DNA from: a virus | DNA length: 64,000 nucleotides | Strand: one strand, 5' to 3' | Virus genome (UHGV): UHGV-1351569 | Part shown: positions 1 through 61,275 of the stretch, in pieces | Layout of the letters: each line of letters opens with the position of its first letter | Numbering within the stretch: position 1 is the stretch's first letter | Made by a program: the position numbers and the translations under genes | Notes under the pieces: generated by a model | Database searches by the model: none | Told to the model about the DNA's origin: nothing | Seen by the model: the letters and a program-made list of their open reading frames with translations, nothing else

Positions 1-16
1 TCATAATCGGAATGCA

Positions 17-346
17 ATGATGACAGACACGCAACTTTTCGAATATCTTTATTTTTCGCCAAAAACTATTAAAAATAAATTGGTGAATCATTTTGAAATT
101 TTGGCAAATAACAACGTCTTGAGCGAATTTTATCCTAAGCAATACAAATTACAAAAAGGCGTATTCAAAGGATGCAGAGTTTTGTGTACTGCTCCTAATG
201 CAAGATTAATGAATAAAATTCCATATTTTACCATGGAATTTATTGATGGACCTTTTAAAGGACTAATCACACAGAGTTTAATGGCATATGATTCTGAGCC
301 ATTTTTAATTAAAGAACAATCTTGGATAAATTTATTTTCTAATTGA
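17..346 (+). CDS. hypothetical protein (vs-region small ORF)
   Basis: 109-aa ORF from track; dense same-strand gene packing; no recognisable motif. Confidence 0.5.
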
Positions 347-353
347 GGTTTAT

Positions 354-716
354 ATGAAAGCATATCAAATTCTTGAAGGCACACATAAAGGCACTATTTA
401 TTTTGAAGATGGTATTCAAGCACGAATTATTGTTTCTAAAACCTTTAAAGAGGACTCTTTTGTAGACCCAGAAATTTTCTATGGTTTGCATGCCCGTGAA
501 ATTGAAATTGAGCAACAGCCTACAGTTAAAATTGAAGGTGGTCAACACCTGAACGTTAACGTTCTGCGTCGTGAAACTCTGGAAGATGCAGTTAAGCATC
601 CGGAAAAATATCCACAGCTGACCATCCGTGTATCCGGTTATGCAGTTCGCTTTAACTCTCTGACTCCGGAACAGCAGCGCGACGTTATCGCTCGTACCTT
701 CACTGAGAGTTTGTAA
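354..716 (+). CDS. GrcA/YfiD-like autonomous glycyl radical cofactor (T4 Y06I-like)
   Basis: C-terminal [24 protein letters not shown] matches the glycyl-radical RVSGY motif of PFL/GrcA; RBS gaggtt before ATG. Confidence 0.8.
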
Positions 717-937
717 TGGCAAAGATAATTATTGAAGGTTCTAAAGATGTGCTAAATGCTTTCGCCGAGTGGTTTAGTAATTCAGGCGAACAGCAATTTA
801 ATGAAGCATGGAATATGGGTGATATTGATGGAATTTATCCTACGACAGAAATTTCTGTTCAGGGATATGGCATTCATGAACCTATTCGTTTAGTTGAATA
901 TGATTTAGGTACTGGTGAGGAAGTAAAATATGATTGA
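716..937 (+). CDS. hypothetical protein, 73 aa
   Basis: ORF start overlaps the previous stop (translational coupling). Confidence 0.5.
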   Translation: MAKIIIEGSKDVLNAFAEWFSNSGEQQFNEAWNMGDIDGIYPTTEISVQGYGIHEPIRLVEYDLGTGEEVKYD

Positions 938-1196
938 AGATATTAAGGGTTATAAGCCACATACTGAAGAGAAAATCGGTAAAGTGAATGCTATCAAAGA
1001 TGCTGAAGTTCGTTTAGGACTTATCTTTGACGCTTTATATGATGAATTTTGGGAAGCACTAGATAATTGCGAAGACTGTGAACTCGCGAAGAATTATGCC
1101 GAAAGCCTTGATCAGTTAACTATTGCTAAAACGAAACTCAAAGAAGCCAGTATGTGGGCTTGCCGTGCAGTGTTCCAACCAGAGGAAAAATACTAA
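930..1196 (+). CDS. hypothetical protein, 88 aa (vs-cluster)
   Basis: ORF from track, overlapping-stop coupling. Confidence 0.5.
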
Positions 1197-1474
1197 TGGC
1201 TCAATTAAGCGCAGGGTTTGGTTATGAGTATTATACTGCCCCTCGTCGTGTATCTGCTGCTCCTAAGAAAATTCAGAGTCTTGATGACTTCCAGGAAGTA
1301 GTTCGTAACGCTTTCCAGGACTATGCACGTTATCTTAAAGAAGATTCACAGGACTGTCTCGAAGAAGATGAAATTGCTTACTATACGCAGCGTCTTGAAC
1401 AGCTCAAAAATCTACATGAGGTTCGTGCAGAAGTTTCAAAGTCTATGAATAAATTGATTAGATTTAAAGAATAA
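1196..1474 (+). CDS. hypothetical protein, 92 aa (vs-cluster)
   Basis: ATG at 1196 overlaps previous stop (taATG) and follows agaggaaaaa RBS; the track's 1154 GTG start is less likely. Confidence 0.5.
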
Positions 1475-1476
1475 TT

Positions 1477-1506
1477 GTTTACTTTTCCTCTTGACTGTGG
1501 TATAAT
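1477..1506 (+). promoter_or_regulatory. T4-type early (sigma70) promoter upstream of regB
   Basis: GTTTAC at 1477-1482, 18-bp spacer, TGgTATAAT extended -10 at 1501-1506. Confidence 0.6.
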
Positions 1507-1533
1507 TTTTCTATCAGTTAAGAGGAGAACAAC

Positions 1534-1995
1534 ATGACTATCAACACAGAAGTTTTTATCCGTCGAAATAAGCTCCGTCGTCACTTTGAGTTGGAGTTTC
1601 GTCAAATTAACAATGAGATTCGTGAGGCATCAAAAGCAGCAGGGGTCTCATCGTTTCATCTAAAATATTCTCAACATCTTCTTGATCGCGCAATTCAACG
1701 GGAGATTGATGAGACATACGTTTTTGAATTATTCCATAAAATAAAAGACCATGTTTTAGAAGTTAATGAATTCCTGAGTATGCCTCCGCGTCCTGACATT
1801 GACGAGGATTTTATTGATGGGGTTGAATACCGTCCTGGACGTTTAGAAATCACAGATGGAAATCTTTGGCTTGGATTTACAGTTTGTAAACCTAATGCGA
1901 AGTTCAAAGACCCGTCGCTTCAGTGCAGGATGGCAATTATCAACAGTCGTCGTTTACCAGGAAAGGCTTCTAAAGCAGTAATTAAAACTCAATGA
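1534..1995 (+). CDS. regB: RegB sequence-specific endoribonuclease
   Basis: 153 aa; sequence and size match recalled T4 RegB; position between vs genes and tk side. Confidence 0.85.
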   Translation: MTINTEVFIRRNKLRRHFELEFRQINNEIREASKAAGVSSFHLKYSQHLLDRAIQREIDETYVFELFHKIKDHVLEVNEFLSMPPRPDIDEDFIDGVEYRPGRLEITDGNLWLGFTVCKPNAKFKDPSLQCRMAIINSRRLPGKASKAVIKTQ

Positions 1996-2002
1996 GGTAA
2001 GC

Positions 2003-2548
2003 ATGAGAAAAGCACTACTCGCTGGTCTATTGGCCATTTCAATGATGGCACATAGCTCCGAGCATACTTTCAGTAATGTCCAACTCGATAACATGCGTTA
2101 CGCGTATCAATTCGGGGAACAATTTTCTAAGGATGGAAAATATAAAACACACAAAAATATCCACAAGAGCGGATTAGGTCATATAATGGCTGCTATTTTA
2201 TGGCAAGAAAGCTCTGGCGGAGTTAATTTAAAATCTAAACCAAAGCATCACGCTTACGGAATGTTCCAAAATTATTTGCCTACTATGCGAGCAAGAGTTA
2301 AGGAACTTGGTTATAATATGACCGACGCTGAAATAAAAAGAATGTTGAATAAACGATCCAATTCAGCTTCCTGGGCGTACATTGAACTTTCTTATTGGTT
2401 AAATATACATAAGGGCGATATAAGAAAAGCAATATCCTCTTATAATTCGGGATGGAATGTTAAAGCAGGTTCTAAATATGCTTCTGAAGTCCTAGAAAAG
2501 GCTAATTACCTTAAAAATAATAAACTTTTGGAAATAGTAAATGACTAA
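2003..2548 (+). CDS. secreted protein with N-terminal signal peptide (T4 vs.1 position)
   Basis: 181 aa; hydrophobic N-terminus MRKALLAGLLAISMMAHS. Confidence 0.6.
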   Translation: MRKALLAGLLAISMMAHSSEHTFSNVQLDNMRYAYQFGEQFSKDGKYKTHKNIHKSGLGHIMAAILWQESSGGVNLKSKPKHHAYGMFQNYLPTMRARVKELGYNMTDAEIKRMLNKRSNSASWAYIELSYWLNIHKGDIRKAISSYNSGWNVKAGSKYASEVLEKANYLKNNKLLEIVND

Positions 2549-2888
2549 AATTTTGGTTTTATGTATAGGATTAATTTCATTTTCTGCTTCTGCGTCAGCA
2601 GATACATCATATACTGAAATTAGAGAATATGTAAACCGCACTGCGGCAGATTATTGTGGGAAAAATAAAGCATGCCAAGCTGAATTTGCACAGAAATTAA
2701 TATATGCATATAAAGACGGAGAAAGAGATAAATCAAGCAGATACAAAAACGATACATTATTAAAACGATATGCTAAAAAGTGGAATACTTTAGAATGTTC
2801 AGTTGCGGAGGAGAAAGATAAAGCCGCTTGTCATTCAATGGTTGACCGTTTGGTAGATTCTTATAATCGAGGATTGAGTACTAGATGA
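2541..2888 (+). CDS. small exported protein (T4 vs position)
   Basis: 115 aa; N-terminal signal-like segment LVLCIGLISFSASASA; overlapping start/stop. Confidence 0.55.
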   Translation: MTKILVLCIGLISFSASASADTSYTEIREYVNRTAADYCGKNKACQAEFAQKLIYAYKDGERDKSSRYKNDTLLKRYAKKWNTLECSVAEEKDKAACHSMVDRLVDSYNRGLSTR

Positions 2889-3364
2889 TTGTAAAATATA
2901 TCAAGGGCGATATTGTCGCCCTATTTCTTCAAGGTAATATTATTGCGCACGGGTGTAACTGTTTTCATACAATGGGCAGTGGTGTAGCTGGTCAATTAGC
3001 AAGAGCCTATCCCAAAATTTTAGAAATAGATAAGACCACAACTGAATATGGTTCGCGTGAAAAACTCGGTGATATGTCTATTGTTTTTAAACATAAACCT
3101 AATGGTTTTGGCATATGTTATAACTTGTATACGCAATACGAACCAGGTCCTAATCTTGATTATGGTGCTTTAGTAAACTGCATGATAGAATTAAATCTAC
3201 AGGCAGAAACCCTTTTGTTTAAACCAGTAATTTACATTCCACGCATAGGTTGTGGTATTGCTGGCGGTGATTGGGATAAGGTTTCTAAATTAATCGACAT
3301 GTTTACTCCTGATATTGATTTAATAGTGGTGGATTATGAAAGTACATTACCCACATCCGTTTGA
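2885..3364 (+). CDS. macro-domain-like protein (putative ADP-ribose binding/processing)
   Basis: N-terminal GDIVALF...GNIIAHGCNCF...MGSGVAGQLARAYP resembles the macro-domain GDIT...NAAN...GGGV signature. Confidence 0.55.
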   Translation: MIVKYIKGDIVALFLQGNIIAHGCNCFHTMGSGVAGQLARAYPKILEIDKTTTEYGSREKLGDMSIVFKHKPNGFGICYNLYTQYEPGPNLDYGALVNCMIELNLQAETLLFKPVIYIPRIGCGIAGGDWDKVSKLIDMFTPDIDLIVVDYESTLPTSV

Positions 3365-3548
3365 TCCTAAAAACAAAGCAGAAATTATTCGTCAATGGGA
3401 ACGCATTTGCCGTACTAAATGCCCAATTAATAGTTCACATGATGTAAATAAAGACTATATTGGAACATTCGTTGAATATACCTTTATTGATAAGAAAGGT
3501 CGTAAACAGCACGTAGAAGAATATTGCTTAAAGGTTACATGGTTATGA
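3336..3548 (+). CDS. hypothetical protein, 70 aa
   Basis: ORF from track. Confidence 0.45.
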   Translation: MKVHYPHPFDPKNKAEIIRQWERICRTKCPINSSHDVNKDYIGTFVEYTFIDKKGRKQHVEEYCLKVTWL

Positions 3549-3751
3549 GCCAAACTAGTATTCTTAAAAATGCCCATTGTGAAAAGTGTAAATGGCCTGT
3601 TGTTTTTGCTTTATGTAATGATGAAATGGCTTGTGATTTCGATTATTGGTGCTATTGTTCGAACAAAGGATGTAGCAATCATAAAGGTGAAGGGTTTTAC
3701 TCGGGATTTTACCCTTATCCTGATTTCGTTAAAGAAGGTGAACCAAAATGA
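3545..3751 (+). CDS. Cys-rich small protein (putative metal-binding)
   Basis: ATG at 3545 overlaps previous stop (ATGA); HCEKCKW...CNDEMACDFDYWCYCSNKGCSNH. Confidence 0.5.
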   Translation: MSQTSILKNAHCEKCKWPVVFALCNDEMACDFDYWCYCSNKGCSNHKGEGFYSGFYPYPDFVKEGEPK

Positions 3752-3924
3752 ATGATGATTTAAAATATCAATTATTACGTGAACTTGATGTTTTGATTGA
3801 ACTTTCTGCACAAAAAGGATTTATAATTGGATCGGGTCAAAAAGACCCCAACGGTCATTCAATCGTATCGGTTATGAATCAGAAACGAGTCATTTTAAAA
3901 CTTTTGGGGATTGACATACTGTGA
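3748..3924 (+). CDS. hypothetical small protein, 58 aa (below track size cutoff)
   Basis: Hand-translated; ATG overlaps upstream stop (aATGA); stop overlaps next start. Confidence 0.4.
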   Translation: MNDDLKYQLLRELDVLIELSAQKGFIIGSGQKDPNGHSIVSVMNQKRVILKLLGIDIL

Positions 3925-4106
3925 GCCTAAGCAAAGAACAAAAAGATAAATTGTTTGAGCTTATCCATGAACTTCTAGATGAGCATACAGAAGCAAACAC
4001 CTTTTATGATGAATACGGCCCGCTATCTCCCGAACAGCAGGAAGAATTTGCTGATCGGTTTGATAAGAAAGAAAATGAATTAATAGCTTATGTGAATACG
4101 CTTTAA
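3921..4106 (+). CDS. hypothetical protein, 61 aa
   Basis: ORF from track (GTG start), acidic helical. Confidence 0.45.
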   Translation: MSLSKEQKDKLFELIHELLDEHTEANTFYDEYGPLSPEQQEEFADRFDKKENELIAYVNTL

Positions 4107-4115
4107 GAAGGTGAT

Positions 4116-4697
4116 ATGGCGAGTTTAATTTTTACTTATGCAGCAATGAATGCTGGAAAATCTGCTTCTCTTTTGACTGCTGCGCATAATTATAAAGAAC
4201 GCGGAATGGGTGTATTAGTTCTTAAGCCTGCTATTGATACTCGCGATTCTGTCTGTGAAGTCGTTTCTCGCATCGGAATTAAACAGGAAGCGAATATTAT
4301 TACGGATGATATGGATATTTTCGAGTTCTATAAATGGGCTGAAGCACAAAAAGATATTCATTGTGTATTTGTAGATGAAGCTCAGTTTTTAAAAACTGAA
4401 CAGGTGCATCAATTAAGCCGAATTGTTGATACATATAATGTTCCTGTTATGGCTTATGGACTAAGGACTGATTTCGCTGGAAAATTATTTGAAGGTTCTA
4501 AAGAACTTTTGGCGATTGCAGATAAACTTATTGAACTAAAGGCAGTTTGTCATTGTGGTAAAAAAGCTATTATGACAGCTCGATTAATGGAAGATGGAAC
4601 ACCAGTTAAAGAAGGCAATCAAATCTGTATTGGTGATGAAATTTATGTTTCTTTGTGTAGAAAACATTGGAATGAATTAACTAAAAAGCTCGGTTAG
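4116..4697 (+). CDS. tk: thymidine kinase
   Basis: 193 aa; P-loop AAMNAGKS; C-terminal CHCGKKA...CxxH zinc motif typical of type II TK; matches recalled T4 Tk. Confidence 0.95.
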   Translation: MASLIFTYAAMNAGKSASLLTAAHNYKERGMGVLVLKPAIDTRDSVCEVVSRIGIKQEANIITDDMDIFEFYKWAEAQKDIHCVFVDEAQFLKTEQVHQLSRIVDTYNVPVMAYGLRTDFAGKLFEGSKELLAIADKLIELKAVCHCGKKAIMTARLMEDGTPVKEGNQICIGDEIYVSLCRKHWNELTKKLG

Positions 4698-4706
4698 TGC
4701 AAAAGT

Positions 4707-4714
4707 TATAAATA
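4707..4714 (+). promoter_or_regulatory. possible T4 late promoter core (TATAAATA)
   Basis: Exact TATAAATA about 25 nt upstream of the 4740 ORF. Confidence 0.4.
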
Positions 4715-4739
4715 GGTTTATCTAACTAAAGGGGTATAT

Positions 4740-4952
4740 ATGCTACAATTAACTGAAAAGCAACTTCGCAATCTTACTGTTCTTCAATTAGATGAAATTC
4801 GTAGGGAAGTTGGAAATATCATTTCAGCTTTGCGTCGAGAAGTATCGCTCAACCAATCTCCGGCAGACTATACTAGATTGCGAAATTTTGAAAAATACCT
4901 TGATAAAGTTAAGGCCGTGCATCGGCATAAAGTAAATACAGGACAAAAATGA
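4740..4952 (+). CDS. hypothetical protein, 70 aa
   Basis: ORF with ggggtatat RBS. Confidence 0.5.
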
Positions 4953-4964
4953 TAGGAGGCCTTT

Positions 4965-5258
4965 ATGGCCTTAAAAGCAACGGCACTTTTTGCCATGCTA
5001 GGATTGTCATTTGTTTTATCTCCATCAATTGAAGCGAATGTCGATCCTCATTTTGATAAATTTATGGAATCTGGTATTAGGCACGTTTATACACTTTTTG
5101 AAAATAAAAGCGTAGAATCGTCTGAACAATTCTATAGTTTTATGAGAACGACCTATAAAAATGACCCGTGCTCTTCAGATTTTGAATGTATAGAGCGAGG
5201 CGCGGAGATGGCACAATCATACGCTAGAATTATGAACATTAAATTGGAGACTGAATGA
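4965..5258 (+). CDS. rI: RI lysis-inhibition regulator (antiholin)
   Basis: 97 aa; N-terminal signal/SAR-like segment; near-identical to recalled T4 RI. Confidence 0.85.
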   Translation: MALKATALFAMLGLSFVLSPSIEANVDPHFDKFMESGIRHVYTLFENKSVESSEQFYSFMRTTYKNDPCSSDFECIERGAEMAQSYARIMNIKLETE

Positions 5259-5641
5259 AATTCAGCGACTTTTCACAAAGTGGAAAACCTTCAAAGGCAG
5301 ATGAATACTTAGGTTTATTAATGGCTGCACAAGCTTATTTTCATTCTGCGCATTTTGAAACTAAAAGTTATGCTAGACACAAAGCATACGATTTTATTTT
5401 CTCTGAGTTACCAGATTTGATTGATAAATTTGGTGAGCAATATTTGGGGTATTCTGGTAGAAAATACACACCTTCAATTCCAGATGCCAGTAAACTTCCT
5501 ACCGACACAATTAAAATGATTGATCGCATACTAGACCAATCTAACAGCATTTACAAAGAAATGCCTCCAGCCATTCAAAGCACGATAGATGATATTACTG
5601 GAATGTTTTACCAGAGTAAATATCTTCTTTCCCTCGAATAA
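5255..5641 (+). CDS. hypothetical protein, 128 aa
   Basis: ATGA overlap with rI stop. Confidence 0.6.
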
Positions 5642-5644
5642 CAT

Positions 5645-5668
5645 TAGTCTCCTTCGGGAGACTTTTTT
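5645..5668 (+). terminator. rho-independent terminator (UUCG tetraloop hairpin + U tract)
   Basis: gtctcc-ttcg-ggagac then tttttt. Confidence 0.6.
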
Positions 5669-5677
5669 CATTTTACC

Positions 5678-5707
5678 GGTTTACTTTCCATTTGAGCTGT
5701 GATACTA
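5678..5707 (+). promoter_or_regulatory. T4-type early promoter
   Basis: GTTTAC, ~17-bp spacer, TAnnnT -10; directly follows the terminator. Confidence 0.5.
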
Positions 5708-5736
5708 TACAACCATCAGATAAAGAGGAGAACATC

Positions 5737-5925
5737 ATGAAAATTGAAGCACTTAATCAAGAAGGAAATATCTACGTCATCATTAATGGTGATTTTTTCG
5801 TCAACATGGATGAAGTTACCAGTGAAGAACTTGAAAAACTTCTTAAGAAACGCTATGATATGTGTGATGAAGCTGCAACTCATATGGCGTGTGCAATATT
5901 CTCTCTTTCATATGTGGTGGAATAA
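5737..5925 (+). CDS. hypothetical protein, 62 aa
   Basis: ATG at 5737 preceded by aagaggagaa RBS (track start 5692 lacks RBS). Confidence 0.5.
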
Positions 5926-6128
5926 TGATTAGTATTGAACAAGCAGATAAAATTAAAGAATTGGTAGCTTTAATTCGCAAAGCAGACGAGGAACTTAGTG
6001 ACTTTGCTTGGTTTTCGGCAGGCATTGCAAATAAAGGCGCTGAAGAACTTGAAGCTAAAGTTGATAATGCTGTAGAAGCTTTAGATATGTTTCTTGATGA
6101 AATTATCGATCATAATACGAGAGTTTAA
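5925..6128 (+). CDS. hypothetical protein, 67 aa
   Basis: taATG overlap with upstream stop. Confidence 0.5.
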   Translation: MISIEQADKIKELVALIRKADEELSDFAWFSAGIANKGAEELEAKVDNAVEALDMFLDEIIDHNTRV

Positions 6129-6130
6129 GT

Positions 6131-6325
6131 ATGCTAACACGTGAACAGTTTGAAAAAATCATTAAATTAGCACGTGATATTGAAATAGATTCATACCAAT
6201 TGGCAGTTGAGCATTGTGAAGGATATTCATACGATGGTATAGAAGCAGCTAAAAAGGATTTGGATAAATCCAAAGCTAAGTTAGTTCAATATCTTGAAAT
6301 GATTAGGTGGAATAATGAAAACTGA
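6131..6325 (+). CDS. hypothetical protein, 64 aa
   Basis: ORF from track. Confidence 0.5.
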   Translation: MLTREQFEKIIKLARDIEIDSYQLAVEHCEGYSYDGIEAAKKDLDKSKAKLVQYLEMIRWNNEN

Positions 6326-6488
6326 AAAGCAGATGTTTTTAATGAAGCTAATTGAAGAATATGCTAATGCAGTTTCTGACTATGAGTATTCTTCTAGGGA
6401 AAGAGGTACAGCTTTCGCAAAGGAAGAAATGAAAATCATGGTTGATGCTCACACAAAGCTTCAGAATTTTATTGAAAACGTCATTTAA
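6315..6488 (+). CDS. hypothetical small protein, 57 aa (below track cutoff)
   Basis: Hand-translated; overlaps end of previous ORF. Confidence 0.35.
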   Translation: MKTEKQMFLMKLIEEYANAVSDYEYSSRERGTAFAKEEMKIMVDAHTKLQNFIENVI

Positions 6489-6490
6489 TG

Positions 6491-6520
6491 GTTTACAAGT
6501 TGGCAAGGTTATGGTATAGT
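6491..6520 (+). promoter_or_regulatory. T4-type early promoter
   Basis: GTTTAC 6491-6496, 18-bp spacer, TATAGT. Confidence 0.5.
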
Positions 6521-6655
6521 AATCTTGTCAACTGCCAAGGAGAAGAGAATGAAAGTTTTGTTTGTTGTGTATGTGATGATTCAATATTATCACCCGATGT
6601 TTACTTATAATCTGGTGAACAACATTATTGATATTATTCAAAGGAGTATGTAATT

Positions 6656-7033
6656 GTGAGTGAGTCGAAGAGAATCAATATGAAACGATTGGTATTAGAA
6701 GTTAGTCCACTTTTTGGTGAATTGGCTATAGAAAAAGTAAATAACATGTATCGTTTGACGCAAGAAGACGATATGCTGTATTTTACGCCTAGTGAAATCA
6801 TTCATTTAACCCAAATTGAATATCCTTATACTGATAAAATAGTAAGCATCAATGATGAGCACAAAATTCATTTTTATTCTTCATGCCCAGGATTTAATAT
6901 TAAAAGTGAGTCAATGTGTTTATCAGTTATCCATTGGGATAGTTTTATAGATAAGATTAAATATTTTTATTATTCTAATGAAAGAAAACATAGTTTAAAA
7001 TGGTTTAAAAAATTGCAATGCTATTATTACTAA
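6656..7033 (+). CDS. hypothetical protein, 125 aa (GTG start)
   Basis: aaggag RBS 9 nt upstream of GTG; see finding on downstream start-less open frame. Confidence 0.5.
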   Translation: MSESKRINMKRLVLEVSPLFGELAIEKVNNMYRLTQEDDMLYFTPSEIIHLTQIEYPYTDKIVSINDEHKIHFYSSCPGFNIKSESMCLSVIHWDSFIDKIKYFYYSNERKHSLKWFKKLQCYYY

Positions 7034-7220
7034 CGCTTGCAATCAGAACGATGAAACTCTTTTAAATGTATCAAAATGTTATGAAGATGGAGATGTCTTA
7101 ACTATTCGTCAAATTGATGATTTTCGATCGCATATTGTCACATTTACCAAAGACGAAGCTATTGCGCTAAAGACTTATCTTGATTCTGTCATTCCAACTA
7201 TGATTTCAAAGTGAGGAAAT

Positions 7221-7742
7221 ATGTTTATTTCAAGTGAAAGCGGTTTAATTCGTGTTGAATTTAAAAATGACATCTTTCTTATTCAAGGAGATGATATTAT
7301 TAAAATGAGTTATGACGAAATCAAGAAAATTTGTAATGCTCTTGAAAATCATGGAAAGGTGAATGCTGTCATTGATATTGGCGATTTATGGGTGACACTT
7401 TATGAAGTATCCGAAGGATTTAACATTGAAGATGAAAACAACATCTTAGCTATTGATAAAAGAAGCGATTTGTTTGATGTGTTAAAAGTTTATGAACAGT
7501 CAAACGGTGGAAGAAAAGCTGCATTGATTTATCAAAAACCACATTCATGCGGAACTGCTTCAATCATTTCCAATATTGAAGGCGAAGTTGATACTTATAT
7601 GTGTGTTTTAAAAGCTGGTGGTGACCGTCATCCGGATTTTATTTCTATTCGTCAAAACAATGGAGAAATTTCATTATCAAAATCAGAAGCTGAAGCTATG
7701 ATTAAGTATTTAACAACCGTTACGCCTTCAATGAAAGGATAA
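7221..7742 (+). CDS. hypothetical protein, 173 aa
   Basis: gaggaaat RBS. Confidence 0.6.
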   Translation: MFISSESGLIRVEFKNDIFLIQGDDIIKMSYDEIKKICNALENHGKVNAVIDIGDLWVTLYEVSEGFNIEDENNILAIDKRSDLFDVLKVYEQSNGGRKAALIYQKPHSCGTASIISNIEGEVDTYMCVLKAGGDRHPDFISIRQNNGEISLSKSEAEAMIKYLTTVTPSMKG

Positions 7743-7744
7743 TT

Positions 7745-8206
7745 ATGATTATTAATGAAAACTCTTGGCACTATAAATTATTCAAATTGTTTAACGATGA
7801 ATGGCAACGACCTAAGACACTATGCGCATATTTTTGGTCTATTGCCATTCCTACATTTTTCGTTTCTATTTTTGGATGTGCTATACTCGTAGGGCTAACA
7901 ATTATTTGTGCAGAAAGCCTACAACGTTGGCTTATTTTTGGTAGTTTATGGACTTTGCTTCCATCAGCATTTATACTTGCGATTTTGGTTGTTTTACTTA
8001 TTATCGGTTCATTTGTTATTCCTGCACATTTGCGTGAAAAATATAAAGATTATAAATGGAAAAAGGATTATGCTTTACACGTAGAAAATATTGATAGGGC
8101 GTATAAAGGTTTACCTCCTATTCAACCCAAGAAATCGATTATCGTTGAATTTTTAAAAGCTCGTAAAGCTAAAGTATGTCCTGTTATTGAATATAAGGCT
8201 GAATGA
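7745..8206 (+). CDS. hypothetical membrane protein, 153 aa
   Basis: Two long hydrophobic segments. Confidence 0.6.
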   Translation: MIINENSWHYKLFKLFNDEWQRPKTLCAYFWSIAIPTFFVSIFGCAILVGLTIICAESLQRWLIFGSLWTLLPSAFILAILVVLLIIGSFVIPAHLREKYKDYKWKKDYALHVENIDRAYKGLPPIQPKKSIIVEFLKARKAKVCPVIEYKAE

Positions 8207-9216
8207 TGAAAACAGTAATGAAAAGCTATTTTGGTAGTCATCTTTATGGAACTTCTACCCCAGAATCTGATGTAGATTTTAAAGAAATCTTTGTTCCTCC
8301 TGCTCGCGATATTCTTATCGGAAATGTCAAAGAGCATATGAGTAAAAACACTAACAACACATCATCTAAAAACACTAAAGATGATATTGACCATGAACTA
8401 TACAGTCTTAAGTATTTCTTTAAATTAGCAGCAGATGGTGAAACCGTAGCATTGGATATGCTCCACACTCCACCTGAGCTAGTGGTTAAATCTGATTTAC
8501 CTGATGTATGGAAATTTATCCAAGACAATCGTTCACGGTTTTATACAACTAACATGAAATCCTATTTAGGATATGTCCGCAAGCAAGCTTCTAAATACGG
8601 TGTCAAGGGTTCTCGTTTGGCCGCATTACGTGATGTATTGAAAGTAGTTAATCAAATCCCTGAGCAATGGGTTGATTACCAAGAAGACGGCTCCATTAAG
8701 CAGCGTCGCACTAAAGTTGAAGATATTAAGCATCGTCTTCCAGAGAACGAATTCTGTGAATGGGTATTCCATAATCATGAGAAAACAGGTCCACAAACGT
8801 TCTACACTGTGTTGGGTCGTAAATATCAAACAACGCTTTCTCTTATTGAGCTTAAGCAGTCACTGAATAAATTAGATGCTGAATACGGCGAACGTGCTCG
8901 TAAGGCTGAAGCGAATGAGGGCATCGACTGGAAAGCTCTGAGTCATGCTTGTCGTGGTGGACTCCAACTATTGGAAATTTACAAAACTGGTGACTTAGTC
9001 TATCCACTTCAAGACGCTCCATTTATTCTCGACGTGAAGTTGGGTAAACATCCATTTAAAACTGTTCAAGAGTTTTTGGAAGATGTGGTCGATCAAGTAG
9101 AAGCAGCATCCATTGAAGCTTCTAAGAACGGTATGCAGCAAAAAGTAGACATGGGTTTCTGGGATGACTTCCTTGAGAGGGTTTATCTTGAAAACCACCG
9201 AAGTTATTATAAATGA
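8203..9216 (+). CDS. predicted nucleotidyltransferase-fold protein
   Basis: 337 aa; N-terminal GSHLYGTSTPESDVDF fits the pol-beta-type NTase G[SG]x9-13Dx[DE] motif. Confidence 0.6.
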   Translation: MMKTVMKSYFGSHLYGTSTPESDVDFKEIFVPPARDILIGNVKEHMSKNTNNTSSKNTKDDIDHELYSLKYFFKLAADGETVALDMLHTPPELVVKSDLPDVWKFIQDNRSRFYTTNMKSYLGYVRKQASKYGVKGSRLAALRDVLKVVNQIPEQWVDYQEDGSIKQRRTKVEDIKHRLPENEFCEWVFHNHEKTGPQTFYTVLGRKYQTTLSLIELKQSLNKLDAEYGERARKAEANEGIDWKALSHACRGGLQLLEIYKTGDLVYPLQDAPFILDVKLGKHPFKTVQEFLEDVVDQVEAASIEASKNGMQQKVDMGFWDDFLERVYLENHRSYYK

Positions 9217-56124: not shown

Positions 56125-56301
56125 ATGCCAATGTATGATTATAAATGCCAATCCGAAGATTGCGGGCATGAATATGAAAAAATTAAAAAGATTTCTGAAC
56201 GAGAAAATGATGTTTGCCCTAAATGTCATCGTCTGTCTATTCGTCGGCCTTCTGCTCCTAAGCATGTGAATGGTGGATTTTACGACTTACTTAAAGGGTA
56301 A
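56125..56301 (+). CDS. FmdB-family-like zinc-ribbon small protein, 58 aa (below track cutoff)
   Basis: Hand-translated MPMYDYKCQSEDCGHEYE...CPKCH fits the FmdB MxxYxYxCxxCGxxFE...CPxC pattern. Confidence 0.5.
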   Translation: MPMYDYKCQSEDCGHEYEKIKKISERENDVCPKCHRLSIRRPSAPKHVNGGFYDLLKG

Positions 56302-56303
56302 TT

Positions 56304-56588
56304 ATGTTTAAAATCGGTAAGAAATATCGCATTCGCGAAGGTGAAGAAAAGAAATATCTATCTTCTGCTATTTATAGGAATGGTTCTATTAATGCCGTAA
56401 TATCTACAAGCGAATTTATCGTTGAAGATATGAAAGGTCATAACGTTACAATGATTAGTACAGCAACTAGCAGAAATGCTGGAAAAATTCTTCACAGTCT
56501 TCGGAGTGAAGTTTTAATTTATGATGAAGAATTTGACTTCTTCGAAGAAGTTCCCGAAGATTTTGATTTGAATGTACTATCACTATGA
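56304..56588 (+). CDS. hypothetical protein, 94 aa
   Basis: ORF from track. Confidence 0.5.
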   Translation: MFKIGKKYRIREGEEKKYLSSAIYRNGSINAVISTSEFIVEDMKGHNVTMISTATSRNAGKILHSLRSEVLIYDEEFDFFEEVPEDFDLNVLSL

Positions 56589-56669: not shown

Positions 56670-56942
56670 TTGAGTGAAATTATGAAATATGTTAATCGTT
56701 CTATCGCGGCATTAGTATTAGCAGTGTCTTTAGCAGGATGTACTGATGCTGATAATGCAACCAAAGTTTTGTCTTCAAGTGGTTTTACTAATATTGAAAT
56801 CACTGGATATAATTGGTTCGGTTGCTCTGAAAATGATTTCCAGCATACTGGATTTCGTGCTATTGGACCTACCGGACAGAAAGTAGAAGGAACAGTATGT
56901 TCTGGTCTATTCTTCAAGGATTCGACTATCCGTTTTAAATAA
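56670..56942 (+). CDS. putative lipoprotein, 90 aa
   Basis: Signal peptide with lipobox LAGC. Confidence 0.55.
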   Translation: MSEIMKYVNRSIAALVLAVSLAGCTDADNATKVLSSSGFTNIEITGYNWFGCSENDFQHTGFRAIGPTGQKVEGTVCSGLFFKDSTIRFK

Positions 56943-56960
56943 AAGGCCTTCGGGCCTTTA
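56943..56960 (+). terminator. terminator-like UUCG hairpin
   Basis: ggcc-ttcg-ggcc then ttta. Confidence 0.45.
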
Positions 56961-57011
56961 GCTTTATGATTACCGGAGTATAATATTCCCGAAACCAAAC
57001 GAGGATAAGTG

Positions 57012-58829
57012 ATGATTAAGAATGAAATTAAAATTCTGAGCGATATTGAACATATCAAAAAGCGTAGCGGCATGTACATTGGTTCTTCTGCTAATGAAAT
57101 GCATGAGCGCTTTCTGTTTGGTAAATGGGAAAGTGTTCAGTATGTACCTGGTCTTGTTAAGCTTATTGATGAAATTATCGATAACTCAGTAGATGAAGGT
57201 ATTCGTACTAAGTTTAAATTCGCGAATAAAATTAATGTTACTATTAAAAACAATCAAGTAACAGTTGAAGATAACGGTCGTGGTATTCCACAAGCGATGG
57301 TTAAAACACCTACTGGTGAAGAAATTCCTGGTCCTGTTGCCGCCTGGACTATTCCAAAAGCAGGTGGTAACTTTGGTGATGATAAAGAACGCGTCACTGG
57401 CGGTATGAACGGTGTTGGTTCTAGTTTAACTAACATTTTTTCTGTGATGTTTGTCGGTGAAACTGGTGATGGTCAAAATAATATTGTAGTTCGTTGTTCA
57501 AATGGCATGGAAAATAAATCGTGGGAAGATATTCCTGGAAAATGGAAAGGAACTCGCGTTACTTTCATTCCTGATTTTATGTCATTTGAAACTAATGAGC
57601 TATCTCAGGTTTATCTTGACATTACACTAGATCGTCTCCAGACACTTGCAGTAGTTTATCCTGATATTCAATTTACCTTTAATGGTAAAAAGGTTCAGGG
57701 TAATTTTAAGAAATATGCACGTCAATATGATGAGCATGCTATCGTTCAAGAACAAGAAAACTGTTCTATTGCGGTCGGTCGTTCACCTGATGGTTTTCGT
57801 CAATTAACGTACGTCAATAACATTCATACTAAGAATGGTGGCCATCATATTGACTGTGTTATGGATGATATTTGTGAAGACCTTATTCCACAAATCAAAC
57901 GCAAGTTCAAAATTGATGTAACTAAAGCACGTGTTAAAGAATGTTTGACTATCGTTATGTTTGTTCGTGATATGAAAAACATGCGATTTGATTCTCAAAC
58001 TAAAGAGCGTTTGACTTCTCCATTTGGTGAAATTCGCAGTCATATTCAGCTTGATGCTAAAAAGATTTCACGTGCTATTCTAAATAATGAAGCAATTTTA
58101 ATGCCAATTATTGAAGCTGCCTTGGCTCGTAAATTGGCGGCAGAAAAAGCAGCAGAAACTAAAGCAGCTAAAAAGGCTTCTAAAGCTAAGGTTCATAAAC
58201 ATATTAAAGCGAATCTTTGTGGTAAAGATGCTGACACTACTCTTTTCTTGACTGAGGGTGATTCTGCTATCGGATATCTTATTGATGTTCGTGATAAAGA
58301 ACTTCATGGTGGTTATCCATTACGTGGTAAAGTTCTCAACAGTTGGGGTATGTCATATGCTGATATGCTTAAAAACAAAGAACTGTTTGATATTTGCGCA
58401 ATCACTGGATTAGTTCTTGGTGAAAAAGCCGAAAACTTGAATTATCATAATATCGCAATTATGACCGATGCTGACCACGATGGTCTAGGAAGCATTTATC
58501 CTTCTCTGCTCGGATTTTTTAGTAATTGGCCAGAATTGTTTGAACAAGGAAGAATTCGCTTTGTCAAAACTCCTGTAATCATCGCTCAGGTCGGTAAAAA
58601 ACAAGAATGGTTTTATACAGTCGCTGAATATGAGAGTGCCAAAGATGCTCTACCTAAACATAGCATCCGTTATATTAAAGGACTTGGCTCTTTGGAAAAA
58701 TCTGAATATCGTGAGATGATTCAAAACCCAGTATATGATGTTGTTAAACTTCCTGAGAACTGGAAAGAGCTTTTTGAAATGCTCATGGGAGATAATGCTG
58801 ACCTTCGTAAAGAATGGATGAGCCAGTAG
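57012..58829 (+). CDS. 39: DNA topoisomerase II ATPase subunit gp39, unsplit form
   Basis: 605 aa from ATG 57012 (gagga RBS); GHKL ATPase N-domain; C-terminal ~130 aa equals recalled T4 gp60 C-terminus, so one ORF covers T4 39 plus 60. Confidence 0.9.
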   Translation: MIKNEIKILSDIEHIKKRSGMYIGSSANEMHERFLFGKWESVQYVPGLVKLIDEIIDNSVDEGIRTKFKFANKINVTIKNNQVTVEDNGRGIPQAMVKTPTGEEIPGPVAAWTIPKAGGNFGDDKERVTGGMNGVGSSLTNIFSVMFVGETGDGQNNIVVRCSNGMENKSWEDIPGKWKGTRVTFIPDFMSFETNELSQVYLDITLDRLQTLAVVYPDIQFTFNGKKVQGNFKKYARQYDEHAIVQEQENCSIAVGRSPDGFRQLTYVNNIHTKNGGHHIDCVMDDICEDLIPQIKRKFKIDVTKARVKECLTIVMFVRDMKNMRFDSQTKERLTSPFGEIRSHIQLDAKKISRAILNNEAILMPIIEAALARKLAAEKAAETKAAKKASKAKVHKHIKANLCGKDADTTLFLTEGDSAIGYLIDVRDKELHGGYPLRGKVLNSWGMSYADMLKNKELFDICAITGLVLGEKAENLNYHNIAIMTDADHDGLGSIYPSLLGFFSNWPELFEQGRIRFVKTPVIIAQVGKKQEWFYTVAEYESAKDALPKHSIRYIKGLGSLEKSEYREMIQNPVYDVVKLPENWKELFEMLMGDNADLRKEWMSQ

Positions 58830-58858
58830 TTTACTTTACCACAAGGATGTGGTATAAT
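58829..58858 (+). promoter_or_regulatory. T4-type early promoter
   Basis: GTTTAC, 18-bp spacer, TGgTATAAT; near-duplicate of promoter at 13689. Confidence 0.5.
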
Positions 58859-58883
58859 TAATTGGGCAAATGAGGATATTGAA

Positions 58884-59087
58884 ATGAAATCATATAAAGT
58901 AAATTTAGAACTTTTTGATAAAGCAGTTCATCGAGAATATAGAATCATTCAACGCTTTTTCGATATGGGAGAAGCCGAAGAGTTTAAAAACCGCTTTAAG
59001 GATATTAGAGATAAAATTCAATCCGACACTGCAACTAAAGATGAACTACTAGAAGTTGCTGAAGTTATTAAACGCAATATGAATTAA
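58884..59087 (+). CDS. hypothetical protein, 67 aa
   Basis: gaggatattgaa RBS. Confidence 0.5.
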
Positions 59088-59097
59088 TGAGGAAATT

Positions 59098-61275
59098 ATG
59101 ATTATCACCACTGAAAAAGAAACAATTCTTGGTAATGGTTCTAAATCAAAAGCATTTAGCATCACAGCATCTCCTAAAGTATTTAAAATTCTGTCATCTG
59201 ATTTGTATACAAACAAGATTCGCGCAGTAGTCCGCGAATTGATTACCAACATGATTGATGCCCATGCTCTCAATGGAAATCCTGAAAAATTTATCATTCA
59301 AGTTCCAGGACGATTAGATCCGCGATTTGTTTGCCGAGATTTTGGTCCGGGTATGAGCGATTTTGATATTCAAGGTGATGATAATTCTCCTGGGTTGTAT
59401 AATTCATACTTTAGTTCATCTAAAGCCGAATCTAACGATTTCATTGGTGGATTTGGTTTAGGTTCTAAATCTCCGTTTAGTTATACTGATACGTTTAGTA
59501 TTACTTCGTACCATAAAGGTGAAATTCGTGGTTATGTAGCTTACATGGATGGTGATGGTCCACAGATTAAACCTACATTCGTAAAAGAAATGGGTCCAGA
59601 CGATAAAACTGGTATTGAAATCGTAGTTCCAGTTGAAGAAAAAGACTTTAGAAACTTTGCTTATGAAGTTTCTTATATCATGCGACCATTCAAAGATTTG
59701 GCTATCATTAATGGTCTTGACCGTGAAATTGATTATTTTCCGGATTTTGATGACTATTACGGTGTAAATCCAGAAAGATACTGGCCAGATCGTGGTGGAT
59801 TGTATGCTATCTATGGCGGTATTGTTTATCCTATTGATGGTGTTATTAGAGACCGTAACTGGTTAAGCATCCGCAATGAAGTGAATTATATTAAGTTTCC
59901 AATGGGTTCACTTGATATTGCTCCATCGCGTGAGGCTCTTTCACTGGACGATCGTACTCGTAAAAATATTATTGAGCGCGTTAAAGAGCTTAGTGAGCGG
60001 GCATTCAATGAAGATGTAAAACGATTTAAAGAATCTACATCTCCTCGTCATACATATCGTGAATTGATGAAAATGGGATATTCTGCTCGAGATTATATGA
60101 TTAGCAATTCAGTCAAATTCACGACTAAAAATCTGTCATATAAAAAGATGCAGAGCATGTTTGAACCTGACAGTAAGTTATGCAATGCAGGGGTTGTGTA
60201 TGAAGTAAATCTTGACCCTCGACTGAAACGCATTAAACAAAGTCATGAAACTTCAGCCGTTGCGTCAAGCTATCGTCTGTTTGGTATTAATACGACAAAA
60301 ATTAATATTGTTATTGATAATACTAAAAATCGTGTTAATATTGTCCGTGGATTAGCACGTGCATTAGATGATAGTGAATTTAATAACACCTTAAATATTC
60401 ATCACAATGAGCGGCTTCTGTTTATTAATCCAGAAGTAGAATCGCAGATTGATTTGCTTCCTGATATTATGGCAATGTTTGAAAGTGATGAAGTTAACAT
60501 TCATTATTTGTCAGAAATTGAAGCTTTAGTTAAAAGTTATATTCCAAAGGCAGTAAAAAGTACAGCTCCTCGTCCTAAAGCTGCTACTGCATTTAAGTTT
60601 GAAATTAAAGACGGGCGCTGGGAAAAAGAGGAATTGTTTACACTTACGTCAGAAGCAGATGAAATTACTGGTTATGTAGCATACATGCATCGTTCTGATA
60701 TTTTCTCTATGGATGGTACTACATCGCTTTGTCATCCATCTATGAATATTTTGATTCGTATGGCTAATCTTATTGGCATTAATGAATTTTATGTTATTCG
60801 TCCGCTTTTACAGAAAAAGGTAAAAGAACTTGGTCAGTGCCAATGTATTTTTGAAACTTTGCGTGATTTATATGTAGATGCTTTTGATGATGTAGATTAT
60901 GATAAGTATGTAGGTTATTCAAGTTCAGCTAAACGATATATTGATAAAATTATCAAGTATCCTGAGTTAGATTTTATGATGAAGTACTTCAGTGTAGATG
61001 AAGTTTCTGAAGAATATACACGACTCGCTAATATGGTTAGTTCATTACAGGGTGTATATTTCAACGGTGGAAAAGATACCATCGGTCATGACATCTGGAC
61101 AGTAACTAATCTTTTTGATGTATTATCAAATAATGCTTCAAAAAATAGTGATAAAATGGTTGCTGAGTTTACCAAGAAATTCCGTATTGTTTCCGACTTC
61201 ATCGGTTATCGCAGCTCTTTAAGTGATGATGAAGTTTCTCAAATCGCTAAAACTATGAAGGCCCTTGCGGCCTAA
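59098..61275 (+). CDS. rIIA: rIIA protein
   Basis: 725 aa, exactly recalled T4 rIIA length; position downstream of gene 39. Confidence 0.85.

Follow-up and report, generated by a model that had tools for sequence, protein, structure and literature searches.

Gene 39 of the phage genome UHGV-1351569, analysed here as a window comprising the whole stretch of 64,000 nucleotides, is almost certainly an intact, conventionally translated, parental empty-site allele in a T4-like (Tequatrovirus) phage, encoding as one polypeptide what T4 divides between gp39 and gp60. As the gene is without the MobA homing-endonuclease element of ~1.1 kb that splits its counterpart in T4, its expression requires neither reassembly of the subunit nor a ribosomal hop. 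The unsplit gene is the already known, ordinary state in T-even phages, published accounts regarding it as the parental allele of Topo2L. The window as a whole belongs to a Tequatrovirus, and the records closest to it in the phage collection share about 95-97% identity.

In the open reading frame list, the frame 57009..58829 on the plus strand opens with a GTG and is 606 aa long; an ATG follows at once, at position 57012. From this ATG to the TAA at 58829 there are 605 codons (1818 nt in all), and the protein thus read begins MIKNEIK, a start common to gp39 of both T4 and T2. A Shine-Dalgarno sequence, GAGG, is situated at 57001-57004, 7 nt 5' of the ATG. The first-pass annotation had described a single ORF of 605 aa at 57012-58829, and both its length and its ends were right. 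The PHROG 543 family ('DNA topoisomerase II large subunit') matched the product across aa 1-605 with an E-value of 2.4e-295. The coordinates of the gene, its domains and the flanking features are collected in Table 1.

Table 1. Features of the gene 39 region, in window coordinates
Feature	Coordinates	Strand	Basis
Upstream signals: putative terminator hairpin, then putative MotA-dependent middle promoter	56942..56984	+	Sequence reading; inferred
Unsplit gene 39, encoding the GyrB/ParE-like large subunit of the type IIA phage DNA topoisomerase (605 aa + stop)	57012..58829	+	ORF, PHROG 543, T2/T6 gp39 match
GHKL ATPase core, aa 47-149	57150..57458	+	Pfam HATPase_c, E = 2e-09, 38.3 bits
Transducer domain, aa 250-384	57759..58163	+	Pfam DNA_gyraseB, E = 1.4e-13, 51.1 bits
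Toprim metal-binding elements, EGDSA (aa 415-419) through DADHDG (aa 486-491), on one polypeptide	58254..58484	+	Motif search, T4 alignment
Parental 64-nt segment, from the third base of codon 473 to the end of codon 494, including the homR-homologous stretch	58430..58493	+	BLASTN breakpoints, codon-level alignment, 46-nt match
Codons GGT CTA (Gly491 Leu492), where T4 has GGA, the 50-nt gap and UUA; no GGA take-off, stop or gap	58482..58487	+	Codon alignment
TOPRIM_C tail domain, aa 519-604; in T4 wholly inside gp60	58566..58823	+	Pfam TOPRIM_C, E = 4.2e-07, 30.7 bits
rIIA.1, 67 aa, directly downstream of gene 39	58884..59087	+	ORF, PHROG 1683, synteny with T2 and T4

The MobA element has been described as a mobile cassette of ~1.1 kb that inserts into the parental Topo2L gene and splits it, adding C- and N-terminal extensions together with a bypass cassette (Manning and Atkins, bioRxiv 10.1101/2022.08.31.505936). 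The same authors located the 5' boundary of the insert within aa 466-473 and its 3' boundary immediately behind D490 or G491, a point that shifts by another 9 nt in the T4 clade; in phage HY01 a 64-nt region of the parental gene was found to be deleted on insertion (bioRxiv 10.1101/2022.08.31.505936). In a review of the mobile elements of T4, mobA is likewise listed as dividing the gene for the large topoisomerase subunit, relative to its state in related phage (PMC2988022).

Positions 1-9000 of the T4 reference sequence (NC_000866) were fetched for comparison. In this record the minus strand carries gene 39 (3778-5328), mobA (3654-3767), 60.1 (2971-3351) and gene 60 (2458-2990, joined), followed by rIIA.1 and rIIA, with the 50-nt non-coding bypass of gene 60 annotated at 2803-2852. 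BLASTP aligned aa 1-473 of the window gp39 to residues 1-473 of T4 gp39 without gaps (466/473 identical, 99%), and aa 472-605 to residues 27-160 of T4 gp60 (128/134 identical, 96%; E = 6e-92). The earlier proposals that one ORF here holds what T4 encodes as gp39 and gp60, and that its C-terminal ~130 aa correspond to gp60, were hence both borne out by these alignments, the relationship of the C-terminal part to gp60 being unmistakable.

BLASTN resolved the same region into two collinear blocks, window 56680-58429 against T4 5661-3911 (95.7% identity) and window 58494-59287 against T4 2793-2000 (98.2%). Between the breakpoints at 58429/58430 and 58493/58494, 64 nt of the window stand against 1117 nt in T4. 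These breakpoints agree with the published edges of the insertion, the first falling at codon 473 and the second at the end of codon 494, 9 nt beyond G491. The 1117 nt of T4 comprise a 43-aa extra tail of gp39, the mobA pseudogene, 60.1, a new gp60 head of ~30 aa, the recoded homR, and the 50-nt gap with take-off and landing codons that both read GGA. The window contains none of these, whilst the enzyme subunit and the flanking genes are the same in both phages.

The codon-level alignment demonstrated how the two sequences part. T4 gene 39 departs after EKA into its 43-aa tail and a stop codon, whereas the window continues from GAA AAA GCC (EKA) with GAA AAC TTG AAT (ENLN), TAT CAT AAT ATC (YHNI), GCA ATT ATG ACC (AIMT), GAT GCT GAC CAC GAT GGT (DADHDG) and CTA GGA AGC (LGS). 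At the corresponding place T4 gene 60 reads NYANVAIM and then TDADHDG, the final glycine of which is encoded by GGA, followed by UAG, the remainder of the gap ending in GGA, and the codons UUA GGU UCU. A 46-nt patch of the window (58438-58483) matched nucleotides 1012-1057 of the T4 insert, which lie in gene 60 exon 1 and form part of the recoded homR, at 78% identity. Over the whole 64-nt segment, 59/64 nt were identical to T2, a total of five differences.

The components of the T4 insert were also sought throughout the window. A search for the take-off and gap pattern, with three mismatches allowed, returned no matches in the whole window, and BLASTN of the 1117-nt insert against the whole 64 kb at a word size of 7 gave chance-level matches only, with the exception of the coding patch at 58438-58483. 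TBLASTN searches of the whole window with the gp39 tail, the annotated MobA, gp60.1 and aa 1-31 of gp60 likewise yielded chance-level matches, none of them significant; the gp60 N-terminal nascent-peptide signal KYKLQNNVRRSIKSSS was accordingly not found in the window, aa 1-31 of gp60 being the query. The element-derived extensions at the C-terminus of gp39 and the N-terminus of gp60 are absent, and the alignment of the window protein to gp39 plus gp60 is uninterrupted. The possibility of a displaced copy of the T4 insert elsewhere in the window was ruled out by the BLASTN, TBLASTN and pattern searches. The inference of the first-pass annotation that there is no gene 60 and no translational bypass thus held, there being no GGA-UAG take-off, 50-nt gap with its stem-loop, HNH homing endonuclease gene mobA or 60.1 anywhere in the window.

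All of the type IIA B-subunit motifs that were searched for are present in the 605-aa product. In addition to the Toprim elements given in Table 1, these include the ATPase motifs EIIDNS (aa 54), DNGRGIP (aa 87) and GMNGVG (aa 131), a QTK loop at aa 329-331 in the transducer domain, PLRGK (aa 436) and KGLG (aa 556). The Pfam scores in Table 1 are to be read against the curated cut-offs of 26.4 bits for HATPase_c, 27 bits for DNA_gyraseB and 29 bits for TOPRIM_C; the Pfam Toprim model was not among the gp39 matches at E <= 0.001. PHROG 7229, the gp60-type family, matched aa 452-605 (E = 5.7e-73). It had initially been proposed that the ORF unites the ATPase domain with a C-terminal segment that is separate in T4. 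Both parts are indeed present, but the T4 split does not fall between them; it cuts through the Toprim domain between the glutamate of EGDSA and the DxD aspartates of DADHDG, leaving the former motif in gp39 and the latter in gp60, whereas in the window both are on one chain. The bypassed gap of T4 sits immediately after DADHDG.

The same continuous layout of ATPase, transducer, Toprim and tail is seen in the cellular type IIA B modules, namely ParE, GyrB and the N-terminal half of eukaryotic Top2. The alignments of the window gp39 to human TOP2A/B, yeast Top2 and ParE ran from end to end (query positions 6-10 to 603-605, with E-values of 1e-59 to 1e-47), and the continuous architecture is therefore the general one for this class of enzyme. 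In contrast, matches to E. coli-type GyrB chains of about 800 aa spanned only aa 5-534 of the query, the window gp39 being phage-sized at 605 aa. The partner, gp52, is a separate subunit, as in bacteria and unlike in eukaryotes.

One further difference from T4 was observed just before the QTK loop, where the T4 reference gp39 reads LIR at codons 326-328 and the window (57987-57995), T2 and T6 all read FDS. At the DNA level this difference arises from a -1/+1 indel pair 9 nt apart (CGATTGATTCGTCAA against CGATTTGATTCTCAA), and the LIR codons stem either from an early error in sequencing the T4 reference or from a frameshift that was compensated.

Amongst the characterised phages, T2 and T6 provided the closest comparisons. 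Gene 39 of T2 (YP_010073651.1; NC_054931.1, 2458-4275) is likewise 1818 nt and 605 aa in length, lies between 39.1 and rIIA.1, and has parental sequence running continuously across the MobA target site, as does the window. The T2 protein is identical to that of the window at 604/605 residues, the sole substitution being F70L, whilst the DNA sequences differ at 72 of 1818 nt (96.0% identity). These differences affect 71 codons, 70 synonymously and one non-synonymously, a ratio that marks the gene as under strong purifying selection and rules out both a fortuitous reading frame and a pseudogene. The best match in the Protein Data Bank was gp39 of T6 (8ylu_C), which is identical at 603/605 positions over residues 1-605, with D173T and Q526H as the two substitutions, the deposited chain also bearing a His-tag. 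The T6 protein has been purified and assembled with gp52, its DNA relaxation activity measured and its structures determined by cryo-EM, in a study which also noted that topoisomerase II consists of three subunits in T4 and of two in T2 and T6 (Nat Commun 2024, PMC11461880).

The arrangement had been labelled as T2/T6-type in the initial reading of the sequence. As regards length and layout this description stands, though it is not a special property of T2 and T6 but the majority form. A megablast search of gene 39 against 50,697 phage records matched 547 records, in 509 of which a single place accounted for 80% or more of the gene's length. Gene span was examined in 60 records sampled at even spacing: gene 39 was present as one 1818-nt piece in 48 of the ~54 close matches, and five records displayed the T4-like span of 2860 nt. 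The 1117-nt T4 insert was found in only 43 records, many of which are T4 isolates. The unsplit gene is thus the condition of about nine in ten sequenced relatives, with T4 being the exception.

The same intact frame would result if an ancestor of this phage had carried the MobA/bypass cassette and had later been cleanly rid of it, an unsplit gene 39 having served as donor for gene conversion in a mixed infection. T-even phages recombine freely, and partial loss of the MobA element has been documented in other clades (bioRxiv 10.1101/2022.08.31.505936, section 12). The window also differs from T4 at only 3 of 336 nt downstream of the MobA site (58494-58829), compared with 59 of 1418 nt upstream of it (57012-58429), an unevenness that hints at mosaic ancestry, and which would fit such a secondary restoration without requiring it. 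However, no remnants of the extensions are present, the junction EKA-ENLNYHNIAIMTDADHDG-LGS being just as in T2 within the same 605 aa, whereas the documented cases of loss retain their extensions (bioRxiv 10.1101/2022.08.31.505936). The 64-nt segment is moreover of the parental type seen in T2 rather than of the homR type of T4, and the unsplit allele is about ten times commoner, so that a lineage which was never invaded is the simplest view. Secondary restoration is consequently considered highly improbable. That the long ORF arose as an artefact of assembly or annotation, or is a pseudogene that has stayed open and conceals a T4-like split, has a negligible probability, as hundreds of independently sequenced phages hold the same 1818-nt gene unbroken, the codon differences from T2 are overwhelmingly synonymous, and the T6 protein of the same architecture is an active enzyme of solved structure (PMC11461880).

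The genes surrounding the unsplit gene 39 are arranged in the order 39.2, 39.1, 39, rIIA.1, rIIA and rIIB. Gene 39 is separated from rIIA.1 by 54 nt (58830-58883), and no gene 60, 60.1 or mobA intervenes. Upstream, a GC-rich hairpin with a UUCG loop (AAAGGCC-TTCG-GGCCTTT, 56942-56959) directly follows the stop codon of 39.1, and on its 3' side are the sequence AGCTTTA, a spacing of 12 nt and TATAAT at 56979-56984. Judged by their sequence, these elements resemble a terminator and, beyond it, a middle promoter with a MotA box that would serve gene 39, and a terminator and predicted middle promoter are annotated at the equivalent place in the record of Yersinia phage fPS-90. A simple sigma-70 and terminator scan listed neither the hairpin nor the TATAAT of 56942-56984; for the TATAAT this is expected, as for any promoter lacking a -35 hexamer. 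At the other end of the gene, a strong sigma-70-like match on the plus strand (58830-58858; TTTACT, 17 nt, TG-TATAAT, 10/12 positions) begins with the base that directly follows the stop codon of gene 39, and may represent an early promoter for rIIA.1 and rIIA.

There were several additional observations concerning neighbouring genes. Between 39.2 (56125-56301) and 39.1 lies a plus-strand ORF of 94 aa (56304-56588) belonging to PHROG 622, a family of unknown function; T2 has an annotated gene at this place (T2_005), whereas T4 has none, with only about 100 nt separating 39.2 from 39.1. Gene 39.1 itself (56682-56942, plus strand) encodes 86 aa, as in T2, and the N-terminal sequence of the product (MKYVNRSIAALVLAVSLAGC) resembles the signal of a lipoprotein. 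The 39.1 of the T4 reference is only 65 aa, with a start that aligns to a different frame (window position 56746), which suggests a frameshift or a mis-annotation in T4. Yersinia phage fPS-90, which gave a two-piece match, was considered as another instance of a split gene 39 and rejected, since gene 39 is whole in that phage, with a homing endonuclease gene on its downstream side. This endonuclease gene (2118-2915 of fPS-90) occupies the interval between gene 39 and rIIA.1 and overlaps the former at its stop codon; a different mobile element has here invaded the same region.

By homology, two copies of gp39 would combine with two copies of the GyrA-like gp52 to form an A2B2 enzyme, which would use ATP to break both strands of one DNA duplex transiently and move a second duplex through the opening, and would support replication of the phage DNA. 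We infer this activity and quaternary structure from near-identical characterised proteins, T6 gp39 being two residues apart. The gene for gp52 would be expected beyond the end of the window, based on the gene order of T4.

Earlier experiments have shown that intact MobA nicks gene 39 of T2 and moves the split and the gap into T2 in mixed infections, and that the gap shields the invaded genome from further nicking (bioRxiv 10.1101/2022.08.31.505936). The five differences from T2 in the 64-nt segment, all of them synonymous, might be thought to make the present allele resistant to MobA, or at least harder for it to nick, and so a naturally immune empty site, though we regard this as very unlikely. 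There was no significant excess of T2 differences within the MobA target segment (5/64, against 3.8% elsewhere in the gene; binomial P = 0.10), and polymorphisms of this kind did not alone block nicking by MobA (bioRxiv 10.1101/2022.08.31.505936).

For annotation, gene 39 of this phage should hence be a single, ordinarily translated CDS, with neither a joined CDS nor a bypass feature. Its product is essentially the T2/T6 protein that has already been characterised structurally, and the phage, with its empty site, would be a natural recipient of the MobA element when homing occurs during mixed infection with phages of the T4 type.
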